A stretch of DNA of 64,000 nt. It comes from Deltaproteobacteria bacterium. Lineage in GTDB: Bacteria > Desulfobacterota > Binatia > Binatales > Binataceae. The stretch is taken from NCBI GenBank assembly GCA_021817345.1, contig JAKAVC010000134.1, positions 4,311-68,310 on the forward strand, in the 5' to 3' direction. Shown piece after piece: positions 28,539 to 34,402 of the stretch (within the stretch, counting starts at the first letter, position 1; the number at the start of each line of letters is the position of its first letter). The notes under the pieces were generated by a model. The model was given only the letters and a program-made list of their open reading frames with translations, had not been told where the DNA came from and did not search any database. Made by a program: the position numbers and the translations under genes.

Positions 28539-29125
28539 AGAACGGCCCGCCGGCGGGAGCGCGCCCCCTGCGGCGATGCGCCTGGGCGCGCGGCGATCTC
28601 GCGCTTGCCTATCATGACGAGGAATGGGGCGTTCCGCTCCACGACGACCGGCGCCTGTTCGAGTTCCTGGTGCTCGAAGGAGCGCAGGCCGGGCTTAGCT
28701 GGGACACGATTCTTCGAAAGCGCGAGAATTACCGAAAGGCGTTCGCCCGGTTCGATCCCGAGACGGTTGCGCGGTTCGACGAGCGCGCGGTGAAGCGCCT
28801 GCTCGCCGATCCGGGAATCGTCCGCAACCGTCTGAAGATACTTTCGGCGATTCGAAACGCCGAAGCGTTTCTTCGCGTGCGCGACGAGTTCGGAAGCTTC
28901 GACGCCTACATCTGGCGGTTCGTCGAGGGGAGTCCGAAGCGCAACGCGTGGCGCTCGGCGAAGCAGATTCCCGCACGCACCGCGGAGTCCGACGCGATGA
29001 GCAAGGAGCTCAAGCGCCGCGGCTTCAATTTCGTCGGCTCAACCATCTGCTACGCCTTCATGCAGGCGGTCGGGATGGTGAACGATCACCTGGTGGGCTG
29101 CTTCCGCTACCGCGAGATTCGCTGA
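28535..29125 (+). CDS. tag: DNA-3-methyladenine glycosylase I
   Basis: Tag family signature (CAWA...DEEWGVP...LEGAQAGLSWDTIL). ATGA overlap with the parB stop. Confidence 0.9.
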   Translation: MKNGPPAGARPLRRCAWARGDLALAYHDEEWGVPLHDDRRLFEFLVLEGAQAGLSWDTILRKRENYRKAFARFDPETVARFDERAVKRLLADPGIVRNRLKILSAIRNAEAFLRVRDEFGSFDAYIWRFVEGSPKRNAWRSAKQIPARTAESDAMSKELKRRGFNFVGSTICYAFMQAVGMVNDHLVGCFRYREIR

Positions 29126-29213: not shown

Positions 29214-31754
29214 TCATTCCTTCGCTACCACGGTATCGTAGAGCCCATAGTGGATTAGGCCCTCGTGGCTTTCGATTCCCGTATAGCGTAGTGACGCGTC
29301 TTCGTAGCGGCGAAAGGCAAAGACAGCCTGGTTCATTTGTTCGGTGTTGAAGACCTTCAGCTGTACGAGCAAATGGAAGTCGTTCACCGTCAGGCCGGTG
29401 ACGGCTAGAAACAAGTCCGGTTCGAGCTTGGTTATGACGTCCTGCAGCGTATTCTCGCGGAAGTCGGTCAGGTACATGAACGCGGGAATCCGAGTGGCAA
29501 ACTTGATCAGCTTCTCCTGCGCGAGCTTCCGCTTGGACTTGTACTCCTTCTCCTCCTCGGTGAGCTGTTTCTTCTCCTTCTCCGTAAGATCGTGGTCCCT
29601 GGCCTTGCTCTTGAGTTCCTTCACCTTCTCGCTCTTGTTGATAATGGTCTCGATGATGTTGTCGCCGAGCGCGCGCCAGCCCTCAATTCGCTCAACGGCG
29701 GCCATCGCCTCGGGGTTGTCCATGATGCGGCGCAGAGTGTCGTTATCTACGTTCACGAGCAGGGCGCTCTCCCACTTGCGTGCCAGCAGCGTGGCTGAGG
29801 TGCCCGCCATCGCGATGTCGAGAATGCCGCCCGCGTCGATCTGCGTCATATTCGCGCCGTCGTAGGCCAGCACGGGCAGAAACGAAACGAGGTCCTTGAC
29901 CGCGTTCTCCGGGTTCTGTTCGTTTGGCGACAGGCCGATCCCATAATCGGAGATCTGCCGCAGCGCGCGCGTGGGCGCGAAGTCAAACACGAAGCAGATA
30001 GGCTTGAGGATCTCCTCCTCGTTCGGGTTGTCGCCGTTGGGGTTCTTGATCGACCACGGCGACTGCACGCGGAACGCTGCCTGAAAGTACGTCTCCGGCG
30101 ACTTGAGGTTGCGTAGCATCAGAATGGATGACCACTGTGGCACCGTCACGCCGGTGGCGAGCTTGCCGCACGAGAGCGTGATGCTCTTGGTCTCGAAACC
30201 GCTTCCGATGGCCTTGCGCACGGGTGGTAATGCCTCCAGTCCAATTCCCGCCGAGGCGCCAGCGGCGACGACCACTTCGTAGTCGTGCCAGAAAGTGTTG
30301 TGCTTCTCGGCCAGCAGGTTTGACATCGCGTGGCAGGCCGCGACGTTGGGGAGGAACCAGAACGAGTGCTGCAGGTACGGCAGCAGGCGGACATCCGAAT
30401 ACGGAAACGGCGGCCGCGTGCCCGTCTTCAGATGCTCCATCACTTGGGGCGTGTACCCACCGCGGATGATGTCTAGCCACTTCTGCACGTCGCTCTTATG
30501 TTTGAATTGCGCTTTGGCGCCCCTGCCTGATGCCTCGAAGAACTCGTTGAGATCAAACTCGTCGAACTCCCCGGCGCTCGCGATTGCCAGCAGCTCGTCC
30601 GGCATCTGGTAAGTCAGCAACCGCATCTGCGGCAGCGCACCATAAGGATTCCACTTGCCGGGCTTCTTCGCGGCGAATTCCTGCTTGGCGCGCTGTTCGT
30701 CGGTGTAGGTCCAGTTGAAGATCTGTTCTTCGATGAATTCGCCCGTGGCCAGCGCTCTGAACGGTGTGCCCGAGAGGTAGAGATATGCCTTGGTCGTGAT
30801 GGGCAGAAAATCGGTCTCCTTCTCCGAAAGAACGCTGAGGTCTTCGTTCACATCCTCCAGCCCGGCCGCGTATTCAATATTGGCCTCTTTCTTTGCAACG
30901 GCCTCTTCTTCGCCTTCAAACAGTTCTTTGGCGGTCTCTCGCCAGGCGCCGAAATGGTATTCATCAAACACCACCAGGTCCCAGTTTACCGTGTGCAACC
31001 ATTCGTTCTTGGATTTGATATTTCCCGCCGCATCACGACCAAGGAGGTCCTGAAATGAGCCGAAGTACACAACCGGTTTGTGGCCGTCGATTTTGGTGGG
31101 ATCGCTGCCCGAGTTGCGCGAGAGGTACTGCCAGCCATCGAAGTCCACGTGATTTTCGATATCCGACTGCCACGCATCCTCGACGGCAGGCTTGAACGTG
31201 ACCACAAGGACGCGTTTGGCGCCAAGCTTCTTTGCTAGCTGGTAGGTGGTGAAGGTCTTTCCGAAGCGCATCTTCGCGTTCCAGAGGAAGCGCGGGACGG
31301 CGTGCATATCCTCCTTCCAAATCGAGTGGAAGTACGCGTGCGTCTTGTTTACAGCCTCCGCTTGCTCGCGGCGCATCGCGAATGTCTCGTGATGCGTACC
31401 GGTGAACCGCTGGCCGGTGCGCAACTCGGTGAGCACGGTCTTCACGTCCTTGACCGTGCAGCGCATCCACTCTAGCTCGCCGCTCTCAAAGCCCTTCTTA
31501 ATCAGGGCCGCGCGCACTTCGTAGTCAGTGAAGATGCTGCCGTCGTTGCGCTCAGCTCGTTCGTCCAGCTCGATCCTATAATTCTTGATGGCGGCGGTTT
31601 TGAGCTGCTCGGCTACGCGCTGCTTCACGTCGCGCGTGGTCTGGCCGACCTTGAGGAGGCCCGCGTGTGCGTCGTCGGCAATGGAGTAAGCGTAGATCCG
31701 CGGCCGGGCTTCCGGCTTGGGCGCAAGGATCTCCTCGATGGTCTTACTCATCAT
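29214..31754 (-). CDS. fusion protein with an N-terminal GIY-YIG (T5orf172-like) nuclease domain and an SF2 DExH helicase/ATPase; putative restriction/effector subunit of an R-M-like defence system
   Basis: N-terminal RIYAYSIADDAHAGLLKVGQTTRDVKQRVAEQ (GIY...YIG...R...E pattern). Helicase motifs: I (KMRFGKTFT), II (LVVFDEYHFGAW), III (LYLSGTPFRA) and VI (FQAAFRVQS). About 250-aa C-terminal domain of unknown function. Lower GC and translationally coupled to the upstream MTase. Confidence 0.7.
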   Translation of the reverse strand: MMSKTIEEILAPKPEARPRIYAYSIADDAHAGLLKVGQTTRDVKQRVAEQLKTAAIKNYRIELDERAERNDGSIFTDYEVRAALIKKGFESGELEWMRCTVKDVKTVLTELRTGQRFTGTHHETFAMRREQAEAVNKTHAYFHSIWKEDMHAVPRFLWNAKMRFGKTFTTYQLAKKLGAKRVLVVTFKPAVEDAWQSDIENHVDFDGWQYLSRNSGSDPTKIDGHKPVVYFGSFQDLLGRDAAGNIKSKNEWLHTVNWDLVVFDEYHFGAWRETAKELFEGEEEAVAKKEANIEYAAGLEDVNEDLSVLSEKETDFLPITTKAYLYLSGTPFRALATGEFIEEQIFNWTYTDEQRAKQEFAAKKPGKWNPYGALPQMRLLTYQMPDELLAIASAGEFDEFDLNEFFEASGRGAKAQFKHKSDVQKWLDIIRGGYTPQVMEHLKTGTRPPFPYSDVRLLPYLQHSFWFLPNVAACHAMSNLLAEKHNTFWHDYEVVVAAGASAGIGLEALPPVRKAIGSGFETKSITLSCGKLATGVTVPQWSSILMLRNLKSPETYFQAAFRVQSPWSIKNPNGDNPNEEEILKPICFVFDFAPTRALRQISDYGIGLSPNEQNPENAVKDLVSFLPVLAYDGANMTQIDAGGILDIAMAGTSATLLARKWESALLVNVDNDTLRRIMDNPEAMAAVERIEGWRALGDNIIETIINKSEKVKELKSKARDHDLTEKEKKQLTEEEKEYKSKRKLAQEKLIKFATRIPAFMYLTDFRENTLQDVITKLEPDLFLAVTGLTVNDFHLLVQLKVFNTEQMNQAVFAFRRYEDASLRYTGIESHEGLIHYGLYDTVVAKE

Positions 31755-33363
31755 CTACTTCCATCGGCCGAATCAACTTCTCGATGTAGGCGATCTCGTC
31801 ATTCGTAAGCCCGTACTTCGCGTAAAGCTTCTTGTCCGTCCACGCCCTCGAAAAGTCTTGGAGCGGTACGAACGAGTAGGCCGAGCGTGAGAGGTCCTGC
31901 GCAGATGACCGCGCAGCAATGAGAAACCGGAAGAATCTCGTGACAACATACGAAAAACAGTTCCGCGCTTCCGTCTCAGTGTCGTAAGCGCCCAGCAGTA
32001 TGTATGTCTCGGTCACAACAGATCCGGGTGGGATGACACCGGACAGTGAGAGCACACGCCGCTGACCGTTCCTGTCAACCTGACCAGCGTGCTCTGATGA
32101 CGACTTGGACGTGAAGACCTTCCACTTATCAACTAGATCCCGGCCGACTGTTACTTCGGATCTGGACGTCCAAGCGCGCCCTCCATTTTGGAGGACAAGA
32201 ATGTCGTGCTTTGATGATCTCTTCTCAGATCCTCGAAAGAAGGTGCGCAATCCAAATGGCTTCTGCGAACTGACCTGCCTTTCGAAGCGCTTCGCCTCGG
32301 GGAGGCACAGTGACGTTGAGCCGGTCTCTACTGCCGTCACTTTCCGGAGAATTGAAAGCGCACGGCTGCTTCGAATGAATACTTCAGCACCTTCTTCTAG
32401 GAGCGGACGCACGGTTTCTGACGATTCTGACCCGTTCTCAAATTCAACTATGCGGCAATCTCCAGGATTGTCTCTGTCCCACAGGAAGTAGCAAACACCG
32501 CCTGCAACATCCACGCTTGGGAAAACCTGCCGGCTGTCCGGGTAGTCAACGAGCTTTCTAATCCGGTTGTCGGTAAGCATCGACTGGCGGAACTCGTCCA
32601 GGCCGCGGCCACCAAAGAGCCAGCGAGACGGGATAACCATCGTCAAGAAGCGCGGCTCAAGCGCCTTCGCTTGCTCCACAAATCTGTTGTAGATGGGAAT
32701 GGCACTCGCGCCGAATCCGCCATCATCCAACTGATACGGTGGGTTCCCGATGATCACATCGAACTGCATATTGTCTCCAAACAGTTCGGTTACCCGAATC
32801 TTGATGTCGTTGGTGTGGATGAACGCATACGCGTGGGTTTCGAGACCTCCGCCGCGGTCAAGGGTTTTCTTGCTGGCACCGCAATACTCGCACCTGTCAT
32901 CAATCCACGCATGCTCGACGCGGTCGAACCAGACGTTGCCACTGTCGTTGGCGAAGGACTTGGCAATGGAGTGCTTGCCGTTTGCATGCTTCGAGCAATA
33001 CACACTCCGCCGCGCAAGCAGACTCGTGAGCCGAGTGATGCCGATGCCGAACACCTGCTTTGTGAGAATGTGATCGACGCGCTCTTGCAGGTCGGGAATC
33101 TCGGCCTCCAATCCCTTGGTAAGCCGGCTGGTGATTTCGCGCAGGAACACACCCGACTTTGTGCACGGATCGAGGAACCTCACTGTCTTGTCCGCCCAGA
33201 GGCTCGCGCCACTGTGGTCGGCAGCCCACGCCTCGGCCAGCGTGTCCAGCATTCGGTTCGCGAGCTCAGGCGGCGTAAACACCTCGTCGTTCGAGAGGTT
33301 CGCAATGCATGTTAGTACATCCGGGTTGCGGCCACGCAGCGCAAACGCCGCCCGAGCGCTCAT
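31744..33363 (-). CDS. gamma-class N6-adenine DNA methyltransferase (Eco57I/TaqI-like) with C-terminal target-recognition region
   Basis: Motif X (EVFTPPELANRML), motif I (FLDPCTKSGVFL) and motif IV (DVIIGNPPYQ), in that order. C-terminal KLYAKYGLTxxEIxYIE tail typical of this MTase family. Confidence 0.85.
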   Translation of the reverse strand: MSARAAFALRGRNPDVLTCIANLSNDEVFTPPELANRMLDTLAEAWAADHSGASLWADKTVRFLDPCTKSGVFLREITSRLTKGLEAEIPDLQERVDHILTKQVFGIGITRLTSLLARRSVYCSKHANGKHSIAKSFANDSGNVWFDRVEHAWIDDRCEYCGASKKTLDRGGGLETHAYAFIHTNDIKIRVTELFGDNMQFDVIIGNPPYQLDDGGFGASAIPIYNRFVEQAKALEPRFLTMVIPSRWLFGGRGLDEFRQSMLTDNRIRKLVDYPDSRQVFPSVDVAGGVCYFLWDRDNPGDCRIVEFENGSESSETVRPLLEEGAEVFIRSSRALSILRKVTAVETGSTSLCLPEAKRFERQVSSQKPFGLRTFFRGSEKRSSKHDILVLQNGGRAWTSRSEVTVGRDLVDKWKVFTSKSSSEHAGQVDRNGQRRVLSLSGVIPPGSVVTETYILLGAYDTETEARNCFSYVVTRFFRFLIAARSSAQDLSRSAYSFVPLQDFSRAWTDKKLYAKYGLTNDEIAYIEKLIRPMEVDDE

Positions 33364-34016
33364 ACGGCCTCCTTCGAGGACTCGCCAGGCGTGGCAGCGG
33401 CCAGCTCGCTCACGGTCACCGGCGGGTAGGTCTTCGTCGGCTTGAAGATCTCGTGCTTCCCGAGGTGGGCGAATAGCGAGTCCTCCGCACTGAAGGCCGA
33501 CGAAAGGGTGAGGGTGTCGAGGCGAAAATCGCGCCGCTGGAATTTGCCCTTACCAAGATAGCCCCACTCGGCAAAGGTGATCGGCTTGCCGTCGCTGGTG
33601 CGCATCGTCAAGGCGTCACCGTGAACGAGGTTCTGCGTGAGCACGTAAAAAGCGGCCCGATAGAGGTCGTCTGATTCCTTGAGGTTCAGGTAGTCAGCGA
33701 GAATCTCCAGCATATTCGCCCGGCATTCGGCGATGTTGTCCTCTAGGAGCTCGATCCCGTAGGTGCACATCAAAGCGAGAAGCGCGTAGTGCCGCCTTTC
33801 AAAGTCGGACCTCCCGAACTTGAGTTCGACGGCGGCAAGCTTGCGCTGCAGGATGCGGACGAGGAAGTTTCCACTCCCACAGGCCGGCTCCAGGAAGCGG
33901 GAGTCGATGCGCTCGGTTTCGTCCTTGACGAGGTCGAGCATCGCTTCGACCATCCAACGGGGAGTGAACACCTCCCCATGGTCGGCGACGCGTTTCTTCG
34001 ACTTGATCTGGTTCAT
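33360..34016 (-). CDS. N6-adenine MTase N-terminal-like module (motifs X, I, II, III but no NPPY). Either an accessory subunit or a truncated paralogue.
   Basis: Motifs GEVFTPRWMVEAML, FLEPACGSGNFLV, YGIEL and LVHGDAL, paralogous to the N-terminus of the adjacent 539-aa MTase. The stop overlaps the next start (GTATGA), which is preceded by GGAGG. Confidence 0.6.
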   Translation of the reverse strand: MNQIKSKKRVADHGEVFTPRWMVEAMLDLVKDETERIDSRFLEPACGSGNFLVRILQRKLAAVELKFGRSDFERRHYALLALMCTYGIELLEDNIAECRANMLEILADYLNLKESDDLYRAAFYVLTQNLVHGDALTMRTSDGKPITFAEWGYLGKGKFQRRDFRLDTLTLSSAFSAEDSLFAHLGKHEIFKPTKTYPPVTVSELAAATPGESSKEAV

Positions 34017-34359
34017 AAGTCAAATGCCCGGCTCGCGTCGGGACTGCCGATTGTCTGACGTACAGAAATAATTATCCTGCGCGCTTTGGCCCCCACAACC
34101 CTACCTCGACATCGACACCGCATGTCAGCTAGGCTTCGTTCGAGCTAGACGAACGTAGCGTACCTCGCTCGATCAATCGGACAAACTTCTTATAGTTGTG
34201 ATGATCCCGCTGCCACCTTCCGGCCACCGGGGTGTCGCCCACCGCGTTCCCCATTGGTCAGCCGCTGTCGCGCGCGCAGGACGAATTCCTGGCTCGCGAT
34301 GCTCTATTGGTTTCGCGATTGAGAGCGGCGGGCGAGGGACGTTCCAGGCGCGCATAGAT

Positions 34360-34402
34360 CGCAACCGCCTCAAGATACTTTCGGCAATTCGAAACGCCGA
34401 AA
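34360..34402 (+). repeat. diverged 43-bp direct repeat of a tag coding segment (partner at 28823-28865); right boundary of the R-M island
   Basis: 39 of 43 bp identical to the tag codons for RNRLKILSAIRNAE. The three substitutions inside those codons are synonymous. Confidence 0.7.

Follow-up and report, generated by a model that had tools for sequence, protein, structure and literature searches.

The ATP-dependent restriction enzymes studied to date, those of Types I, III and ISP, use nucleases of the PD-(D/E)xK kind, and to our knowledge the coupling of a GIY-YIG-type nuclease to a translocase has been predicted and never biochemically characterised. The Type ISP nuclease is a Mrr-like PD-(D/E)xK enzyme, and those of Types I and III are PD-(D/E)xK enzymes as well (PMC2790908). 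Morgan et al. (2009) proposed an ATP-dependent restriction-modification (R-M) system for YeeA/YeeB/YeeC, in which a gamma-class methyltransferase, a DEAD helicase and a GIY-YIG nuclease are combined and the YeeA-type methylase is a MmeI homologue devoid of the endonuclease motif (PMC2731913). No restriction or phage defence has been seen with the related dnmA-yeeB-yeeC cluster of Bacillus subtilis, and DnmA was proposed to be an orphan epigenetic regulator (PMC9973331). The yeeAB genes, an analogous split system, give Vibrio crassostreae resistance to some phages.

The locus described here lies in a 64,000-nt stretch of DNA from a Deltaproteobacteria bacterium (the whole of which we call the window) and consists of three overlapping minus-strand open reading frames, as had been claimed: gene A (33360-34016, 218 aa), gene B (31744-33363, 539 aa) and gene C (29214-31754, 846 aa). 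The cassette, whose copy here is intact, represents a very widespread, uncharacterised three-gene R-M design. It is best read as related to the Type ISP layout, but split and with a GIY-YIG-type nuclease, and it probably forms a functional three-subunit ATP-dependent translocating R-M system. The original prediction of a distinct, non-textbook translocating R-M or defence system was upheld computationally as far as the architecture is concerned, but this is not a new kind of system, because its general design was already proposed in 2009.

The predicted overlaps of 4 and 11 nt can both be read out at the gene junctions. At the A/B junction (...GAAGGAGGCCGTATGA...), the overlap is an ATGA of 4 nt, with a Shine-Dalgarno-like GAAGGAGG upstream, while the B/C overlap (...GTAGATGATGAGTAA...) is 11 nt when counted from the first ATG of gene C but shortens to 8 nt if translation begins at the second ATG, as the 845-aa homologues imply. 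Given the A-B-C order and these overlapping stops and starts, the methylase side would be made before the nuclease. Neither a sigma-70-like promoter nor a convincing terminator could be recognised near the operon. The operon has a GC content of 58.1% and the remainder of the window 63.3%; the measured gap is thus ~5 points, and the claimed drop of ~10 points was overstated. Two copies of a 53-nt direct repeat on the plus strand flank a low-GC segment of ~5.5 kb: the left copy (28812-28864) is located inside the intact tag gene, in the codons for ...RNRLKILSAIRNAE..., and the right copy (34349-34401), 85% identical and non-coding, is a short fragment derived from tag that lies upstream of gene A. 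The island adjoins parAB and tag in a chromosomal core region, with no mobility genes inside it and no tRNA nearby.

The product of gene C starts with a T5orf172 domain of the GIY-YIG superfamily, a putative nuclease (31425-31694, minus strand; aa 21-110), which Pfam recovers with 26.5 bits against a cutoff of 20, in keeping with the N-terminal GIY-YIG/T5orf172 signature originally read in this protein. Residues Y21, K35, G37, R46, D77 and E95 are invariant, the core Tyr, Arg and Glu (Y21, R46 and E95) being retained in homologues down to 30% identity, and diverse members of the family match T5orf172 in 42 of 51 cases and MUG113 in 30 of 51. The predicted topology of the domain is beta-beta-alpha-beta-alpha-alpha, which would suit a GIY-YIG fold, the whole-chain Foldseek matches being dominated by the motor. 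No Pfam match to PD-(D/E)xK or Mrr was obtained; a profile of the T5orf172 domain matched no PDB sequence, and no solved structure links T5orf172 to GIY-YIG nucleases by sequence. T5orf172 was originally described as a DNA-binding domain. The T5orf172 domain of the Odn protein of phage ICP1 has retained the catalytic Arg and Glu and shows nuclease activity (PMC8263062).

The body of the protein is an SF2 DExH ATPase/translocase motor (29835-31382, minus strand; aa 125-640), delimited with Pfam ResIII and an AF2 model. The ResIII match (aa 125-278) covers only the generic first RecA-like lobe, and all four helicase motifs of the original description, I, II, III and VI, are present and conserved among homologues: Walker A GKT (K166), DEYH at aa 264-267 (D264, E265 and H267), SGTP at aa 328-331 (G329 and T330) and QAAFRVQ at aa 558-564 (Q558 and R562). 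The AF2 model has a pLDDT of 81, and the motor includes a low-confidence acidic insert (aa 272-316). With the whole-chain model, Foldseek returned generic SF2 motors, namely Snf2/Chd1, RadD, SauUSI, ZorD and the HsdR of EcoR124I, which are dsDNA translocases with restriction and defence motors among them. At the sequence level, phmmer found nothing in the PDB at E<=1 and NCBIfam holds no model for gene C, so that these searches provide no full-length match to a characterised Res or HsdR family. The remainder of gene C (29214-29834, minus strand, stop codon included; aa 641-846) encodes a helical domain, as judged from predicted secondary structure, with a long Lys/Glu-rich helix at ~aa 700-753. 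This tail is highly conserved, its counterpart in fused relatives lies between motor and methylase, and it is the candidate docking region for the methylase.

Gene B encodes a methyltransferase core (32479-33363, minus strand; aa 1-295), defined by Pfam Eco57I (aa 102-281, E 4e-34) and by a conservation map, with a median pairwise identity of 72% among 80 homologues. Motif X (DEVFTPP), motif I and the GNPPY previously noted in this protein are all there: motif IV reads FDVIIGNPPYQ (NPPY at 32734-32745), and GNPPYQ is invariant across 30 homologues. Motif I, FLDPxxKSGxFLRE, is conserved but unusual, KSG replacing GxG, the motif II region (VFGIGIT) has no acidic residue, and the core carries a Cys-containing insertion. 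The motifs run X-I-...-IV, with the recognition region C-terminal to them, which is an order of the gamma type. The suspected target-recognition tail proved to be hypervariable (31879-32466, minus strand; aa 300-495): nucleotide alignments break off here between loci that share 74-86% identity in the flanking genes, and 80 protein sequences of the region, with a median pairwise identity of 33%, fall into 17 clusters. Such a variable recognition region amid an otherwise conserved cassette is the signature of diversifying R-M specificity. A conserved C-terminal tail (31744-31878, minus strand, stop codon included; aa 496-539) closes the protein and overlaps the start of gene C.

Gene A is a stand-alone, truncated version of the gamma-class N6-adenine methyltransferase fold, with motifs X (GEVFTP), I (FLEPACGSGNFL), II (YGIEL) and III (HGDAL), corresponding to GEVFT, LEPAxGxGxFL, YG(I/V)(E/D) and GDAL in its homologues. 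In agreement with the earlier reading of this protein, motif IV, (N/D)PP(Y/F/W), is absent, and this holds for all aligned homologues, in which an invariant PIxFxEW...RRD segment occupies the position expected for NPPY. Pfam matches are restricted to the N-terminal parts of N6_Mtase and MmeI_Mtase, NCBIfam matches of both gene A and gene B are below threshold, and PDB sequence searches with either of the two gave nothing useful. That gene A might be a pseudogene fragment was rejected, since it belongs to a stand-alone family of ~214-236 aa with at least 8000 scored homologues and a dN/dS of 0.09; the extra 218-aa module originally reported is therefore a real conserved gene.

Relatives of the cassette were counted in no fewer than 594 species representatives. 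Whether the locus is chromosomal, plasmid-borne or on a viral contig, the A-B-C order recurs in nearly all related loci with enough upstream sequence. Sequenced isolates with the cassette include Bradyrhizobium cytisi, Sphingopyxis macrogoltabida EY-1, Rhizobium phaseoli, Deinococcus wulumuqiensis, Corynebacterium crudilactis and Pararhizobium haloflavum. Because thousands of homologues share this order, the operon is far beyond chance. Among the best 80 loci, which span many phyla, gene C identity is 83-90%, and the order is still retained in a 55-60% clade and at 43% in Mycolicibacterium. Purifying selection is evident in each of the three genes, dN/dS being 0.07 for gene C, 0.09 for gene A and 0.12 for gene B at a dS of ~1.25-1.55. 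That recent horizontal transfer alone explains the high cross-phylum identity was rejected, synonymous sites being near saturation, and the third-position GC of the cassettes, which follows the host, was also counted against it. On plasmids, viral contigs and islands, neighbouring genes include toxin-antitoxin, TIR and other defence-type genes. A blastn search of 5,426 complete Escherichia coli genomes found no relative. In the literature searched, no experiment on the family and no characterised member was found, the three-gene architecture was not described in work linking T5orf172 to helicases, methyltransferases, restriction-modification or Type ISP enzymes, and it is not among the architectures listed in a 2006 GIY-YIG survey.

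In Firmicute plasmids, genes C and B are fused into one 1445-aa protein and gene A stays separate. In the Enterococcus fusion, gene C aligns to aa 1-641 with 34% identity and gene B (aa 15-535) to aa 965-1445; the strong gene C match stops at aa 666, and a weak match at aa 745-796 precedes the methylase part. These fused relatives are all distant (31-34% identity), and the end-to-end fusion, in the domain order of Type ISP enzymes, argues strongly that the C and B proteins work as one machine.

The non-canonical motifs I and II make it uncertain that the gene B protein binds its own cofactor. One possible, though doubtful, arrangement is that A and B together constitute the real methyltransferase, A supplying or completing S-adenosylmethionine binding and B being inactive alone; this is a refinement of the main explanation rather than a substitute for it. 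It is consistent with the complementary motif content of the two proteins, gene A having canonical motifs X to III without a catalytic motif and gene B keeping NPPY next to a KSG motif I and a motif II stripped of its acidic residue, a degeneracy that goes further still in the Enterococcus fusion (FADLYVKSG). Gene A is also separate yet present even where B and C are fused, its fold resembles the N-terminal half of the HsdM and LlaBIII methylase domains (HsdM proteins being the best matches), and it can be aligned to the motif X-I segment of gene B. Against this, the N-terminal methylase half of gene B is still recognisable to PADLOC profiles (aa 27-123), and functional methylases such as M.TaqI likewise lack the first glycine of motif I.

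Among characterised systems, Type ISP enzymes (LlaGI and LlaBIII) share with this locus an SF2 helicase-like ATPase, a gamma-class N6A methylase and a recognition domain, but they are single polypeptides, whereas three separate ORFs are found here, with a half-methylase in addition; their N-terminal nuclease is Mrr-like PD-(D/E)xK rather than of the T5orf172/GIY-YIG type, and no sequence likeness of gene C or B to the LlaBIII/LlaGI chains in the PDB was detected. DnmA(YeeA)-YeeB-YeeC likewise comprises three genes, which bring together a helicase of the DEAD/DExH type, a T5orf172/GIY-YIG protein and a gamma-class adenine methylase with a built-in recognition domain. By published descriptions, however, its helicase and T5orf172 proteins are separate and encoded in the order methylase-helicase-nuclease, whereas in gene C the T5orf172 domain precedes the motor within one protein, and its single methylase is of the MmeI family, whereas the 539-aa protein is of the Eco57I type and MmeI_Mtase matches only the small gene A module, in part. 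A half-methylase has not been reported in that system. Types I (HsdRMS) and III (Mod/Res) are multi-subunit and ATP-dependent, with an SF2 motor and a separate methylase as here, and differ in having PD-(D/E)xK nucleases in place of T5orf172. No separate HsdS gene exists in or beside the operon, the recognition region belonging to gene B; Type III Mod also contains a recognition domain, but the gamma-type motif order of gene B sets the cassette apart from Type III, and the nuclease of Res is not N-terminal, unlike the T5orf172 domain of gene C.

The PADLOC profile PDLC03626 ('REase_MTase_IIG', 1359 positions) matches gene C at positions 179-798 and gene B at 1008-1356, with the helicase ahead of the methylase just as in the fused proteins of the plasmids, and its match begins at aa 155 of gene C, so the T5orf172 domain and gene A are not covered. 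Its Type IIG label is derived from REBASE. Type IIG enzymes are single-chain nuclease-methylases, and this system is split and has a complete, conserved SF2 motor in gene C; we know of no ATP-dependent motor in true Type IIG enzymes, and the label therefore reflects cataloguing and not mechanism.

We also considered a BREX-like defence based on methylation marking, in which phages would be blocked without classical cleavage and the motor and T5orf172 domain would act as DNA binders or remodellers. We regard this as unlikely: the T5orf172 Tyr, Arg and Glu are kept at a depth of divergence that pure binding would not need, no other BREX genes are present and the fused relatives show the nuclease-motor-methylase order of Type ISP enzymes. 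It is even less likely that the cassette survives in this genome as a relic, in decay or domesticated, with its methylase now an orphan epigenetic regulator and restriction lost. For this, DnmA of B. subtilis sets a precedent (PMC9973331), and the setting of the island, free of mobility genes and beside parAB and tag in the chromosomal core, could also speak; against it, the three frames are intact with overlapping ends, every catalytic residue conserved in the family is kept and purifying selection acts strongly on the entire family.

As a translocating R-M system, the cassette could work as follows. The gene B protein would provide both specificity and modification. Its variable C-terminal region would read a short and probably asymmetric DNA site, and its NPPY centre would make N6-methyladenine, presumably on one strand, to mark host DNA. 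The gene C protein would be the restriction subunit, docked on the gene B protein through its helical C-terminal domain. At unmethylated sites, its SF2 motor would hydrolyse ATP and pull in or travel along dsDNA, and the N-terminal T5orf172/GIY-YIG-type domain would then cut. As with Type I and Type ISP enzymes, cleavage would probably take place at a distance from the site, once translocation is halted or one complex runs into another; Type ISP enzymes are marked by translocation-collision cleavage at head-to-head asymmetric sites. Gene A would provide an obligatory accessory subunit, a catalytically dead half-methyltransferase with retained S-adenosylmethionine-binding motifs, which would tune methylation versus restriction, most likely by pairing with the methyltransferase domain of gene B or by binding the cofactor; its place in the mechanism is a guess. 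More specifically, and only tentatively, gene A may be an obligate pseudo-enzyme that binds S-adenosylmethionine and either completes the cofactor site of gene B or senses cofactor or methylation status, thereby gating the nuclease-motor.

The cassette offers a compact three-gene model for studying how a GIY-YIG-type nuclease is coupled to a translocase. Its value as a model lies in its breadth of occurrence, in a motor-nuclease that is highly conserved across phyla, in a recognition module that is naturally swappable and in the existence of both fused and split versions in nature, while the obligatory half-methylase raises a testable question about the balance of methylation and restriction. 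At present, the genes of the cassette are annotated only through the PADLOC Type IIG profile or under generic RefSeq helicase and methylase names, and a proper definition would therefore alter the annotation of thousands of genomes. If the pseudo-enzyme reading of gene A is true, it defines a new class of ATP-dependent R-M systems, composed of a nuclease-motor, a methylase/recognition subunit and a half-methylase, and its cassettes would be some of the most widespread and best conserved of all bacterial R-M cassettes.

The three overlapping minus-strand genes of the cassette, A (33360-34016, 218 aa), B (31744-33363, 539 aa) and C (29214-31754, 846 aa), lie exactly where the original prediction of an atypical restriction-modification-like operon had placed them, and they probably constitute a translocating restriction-modification system. 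The stop codon of A and the start codon of B share ATGA, preceded by a Shine-Dalgarno-like GAAGGAGG, and the overlap between the stop of B and the start of C is 11 nt long, shrinking to 8 nt should C begin at its second ATG, as its 845-aa homologues imply. With this A-B-C order and each stop overlapping the next start, the methylase would tend to be made before the nuclease. The GC content of the operon is 58.1%, compared with 63.3% in the remaining window, which puts it about 5 points lower, not the predicted 10 or so. The cassette is flanked by tag, which follows rsmG-parA-parB, on one side and by a CoA-transferase gene on the other, and no integrase or tRNA was found near it. A 53-nt direct repeat has its left copy (28812-28864) inside the intact tag gene and its right copy (34349-34401, 85% identical) in a non-coding, tag-derived fragment, RNRLKILSAIRNAE, upstream of A; because the cassette lies between tag and the right copy, the repeats bracket the low-GC segment. 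This pair looks like the trace of an insertion that duplicated a long target, or of illegitimate recombination. The window is matched by MAG contig DAHVPY010000058.1 (GCA_027318025.1).

T5orf172 domains are part of the GIY-YIG superfamily. Pfam places one at residues 21-110 of C, followed at residues 125-278 by the first RecA-like lobe of a 'ResIII' SF2 ATPase; NCBIfam holds no model for C, no solved structure similar to it by sequence was found, and a profile of the T5orf172 domain found nothing among PDB sequences. T5orf172 is matched by 42 of 51 C family members and MUG113 by 30. In 51 relatives with identity as low as 30%, the invariant or near-invariant residues of the T5orf172 domain are Y21, K35, G37, R46, D77 and E95, and those of the motor are K166 (Walker A), D264-E265-H267 (DExH), G329-T330 (motif III) and Q558/R562 (motif VI). 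The AlphaFold model of C (pLDDT 81, pTM 0.72) has an N-terminal beta-beta-alpha-beta-alpha-alpha domain, consistent with a GIY-YIG core, then a pair of RecA-like lobes and, at the C-terminus, a helical domain that includes a long helix rich in Lys and Glu. Evidence for the putative GIY-YIG nuclease fold thus comes from three sources, namely the Pfam match, residue conservation and the topology of the model. One T5orf172 protein in which the catalytic Arg and Glu are retained, Odn of ICP1, has nuclease activity (PMC8263062). In Foldseek comparisons, the motor groups with the dsDNA translocases Chd1/Snf2, RadD, SauUSI, ZorD and HsdR of EcoR124I. A low-confidence (pLDDT <50), Glu/Lys-rich insertion at residues 272-316 (30807-30941) interrupts the first RecA-like lobe directly past the DEYH box, and a fused Enterococcus relative has a far shorter stretch at this position.

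B carries an Eco57I methylase domain (Pfam, E 4e-34), and solved structures gave no useful sequence match to either B or A. Its motifs X (DEVFTPP) and IV (GNPPYQ) are invariant, motif I (FLDPxxKSGxFLRE) is unusual yet conserved, and the motif II region (VFGIGIT) is without the usual acidic residue. A belongs to a stand-alone family of ~214-236 aa that matches only the N-terminal parts of the Pfam families N6_Mtase and MmeI_Mtase, with invariant GEVFT (motif X), LEPAxGxGxFL (motif I), YG(I/V)(E/D) (motif II), DN and GDAL (motif III), then PIxFxEW and RRD, whereas NPPY is missing from the aligned homologues. A aligns with the motif X-I segment of B at 33% over 60 residues. That the cofactor motifs are canonical in A and non-canonical in B, and more degenerate still in the fused form (FADLYVKSG), suggests that A helps or regulates B. 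Between motifs II and IV, residues 122-160 of B (window ~32880-33000) form an insertion with conserved Cys and His (VYCSKH ... CEYCG), which is retained in a sampled alignment of 30 sequences, is missing in the fused Enterococcus protein and may represent a small metal-binding knuckle.

B shows the classic pattern of specificity diversification in restriction-modification systems, in which the enzyme is conserved and the recognition module is shuffled. Among 80 loci whose C is at least 80% identical, median pairwise identity is 72% in the B core (residues 1-295) and 33% in residues 300-495, which fall into 17 clusters. When the window is compared at the DNA level with a Bradyrhizobium isolate and a Chloroflexi MAG, the latter stretch alone within the operon does not align. 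In this three-locus comparison, similarity begins ~10 nt before the ATG of A and ends ~20 nt past the stop of C, so the shared unit is the three genes alone.

B lies upstream of C in 109 of 121 related loci and A upstream of B in 94, a contig end accounting for nearly all missing genes. The order is kept in a second clade (C 55-67% identical) and on a Mycolicibacterium plasmid whose C is only 43% identical. In an Acidimicrobiaceae MAG (L117), neither A nor B was detected in the 6 kb upstream of C, and in a Sideroxydans MAG (L092) B and C are present and A was not detected; either locus may be a decayed copy or a genuine departure from the three-gene rule. Some C homologues on viral contigs of the 55-57% identity clade (L030, L031, L036) reach 968-972 aa, above the usual ~840 aa, and so carry an extra domain.

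Plasmids of Enterococcus, Lactococcus, Lactiplantibacillus and other Firmicutes encode a ~1445-aa protein whose N-terminal ~640 residues match C, starting at its residue 2 and with T5orf172 included (34% identity), and whose last 480 (aa 965-1445) align end to end with residues 15-535 of B; a separate 248-aa A-like gene lies directly upstream and overlaps it. B and C are thus linked by a naturally fused form. PADLOC profile PDLC03626 (labelled Type IIG, 1359 positions) matches C at positions 179-798 and B at 1008-1356, which implies that catalogues already include a fused helicase-methylase relative.

C has at least 8000 database relatives, the best 120 of which are 89-92% identical and carry generic labels ('DEAD/DEAH box helicase', 'GIY-YIG nuclease family protein', 'restriction endonuclease'). 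Among representatives of 50%-identity clusters, searched exhaustively, 4158 match at E<=1e-3 and 1175 at E<=1e-30; most are ~800-860 aa long and align from about residue 16-31, which marks the T5orf172-motor fusion as an old, large family. Scanning one genome per GTDB species yields at least 594 loci, the top 80 of which (83-90% amino-acid identity) span Pseudomonadota, Chloroflexota, Planctomycetota, Acidobacteriota, Verrucomicrobiota, Nitrospirota, Actinomycetota, Bacillota, Bacteroidota, Cyanobacteria, Myxococcota and others. Relative to the window copy, median dS is ~1.25 and dN ~0.08; dN/dS is lowest for C (0.068), followed by A (0.091) and the B core (0.119), and third-position GC of C correlates with the GC of host flanks (r = 0.68). 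Recent transfer alone is ruled out as the cause of this likeness by that dS and by the tracking of host flanks.

Carriers include 35 IMG/VR viral contigs, prophage-like regions and plasmids of Sphingopyxis, Rhizobium, Deinococcus, Corynebacterium and others, and toxin-antitoxin or other defence-type genes often adjoin the cassette. In Bradyrhizobium cytisi (L001, 11450-13386) and a Gemmatimonadetes MAG (L004, 11413-13327), both prophage-like in look (YqaJ, tail and lysozyme genes), C is followed by the same trio, a HigB-like toxin (~99 aa), an HTH and M78-peptidase protein (~375 aa) and a 154-aa protein; the cassette may thus travel inside a larger shared module. On a Mycolicibacterium vanbaalenii plasmid (L122, 7777-12484), the A-B-C homologues adjoin a HIT-domain and TIR-domain gene pair, then a helicase-related protein and a DUF1156 protein, a gene set that suggests a defence island.

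In the proposed mechanism, B would recognize and methylate the site, C would dock on B and, at unmodified sites, drive DNA movement with ATP before cutting through its T5orf172 domain, and A would be a required accessory. The same design was proposed in 2009 for an MmeI-like YeeA, a YeeB helicase and a YeeC GIY-YIG protein (PMC2731913); yeeAB gives Vibrio crassostreae protection from some phages, and the B. subtilis cluster gives no defence (PMC9973331). Unlike that system, the cassette has T5orf172 fused to the motor, a methylase of the compact Eco57I type and an added half-methylase, A. The nuclease-motor-methylase-recognition order of Type ISP enzymes is that of the fused Firmicute protein, but the cassette is not a single chain, has no Mrr nuclease and lacks sequence homology to them; nor is it Type I (it has no S subunit), Type III or Type IIG. 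No description of the three-gene architecture was found in the literature searched. Taken with the precedent, these differences make the cassette a variation on a design already proposed, one that is abundant, uncharacterised and catalogued under generic or misleading labels.
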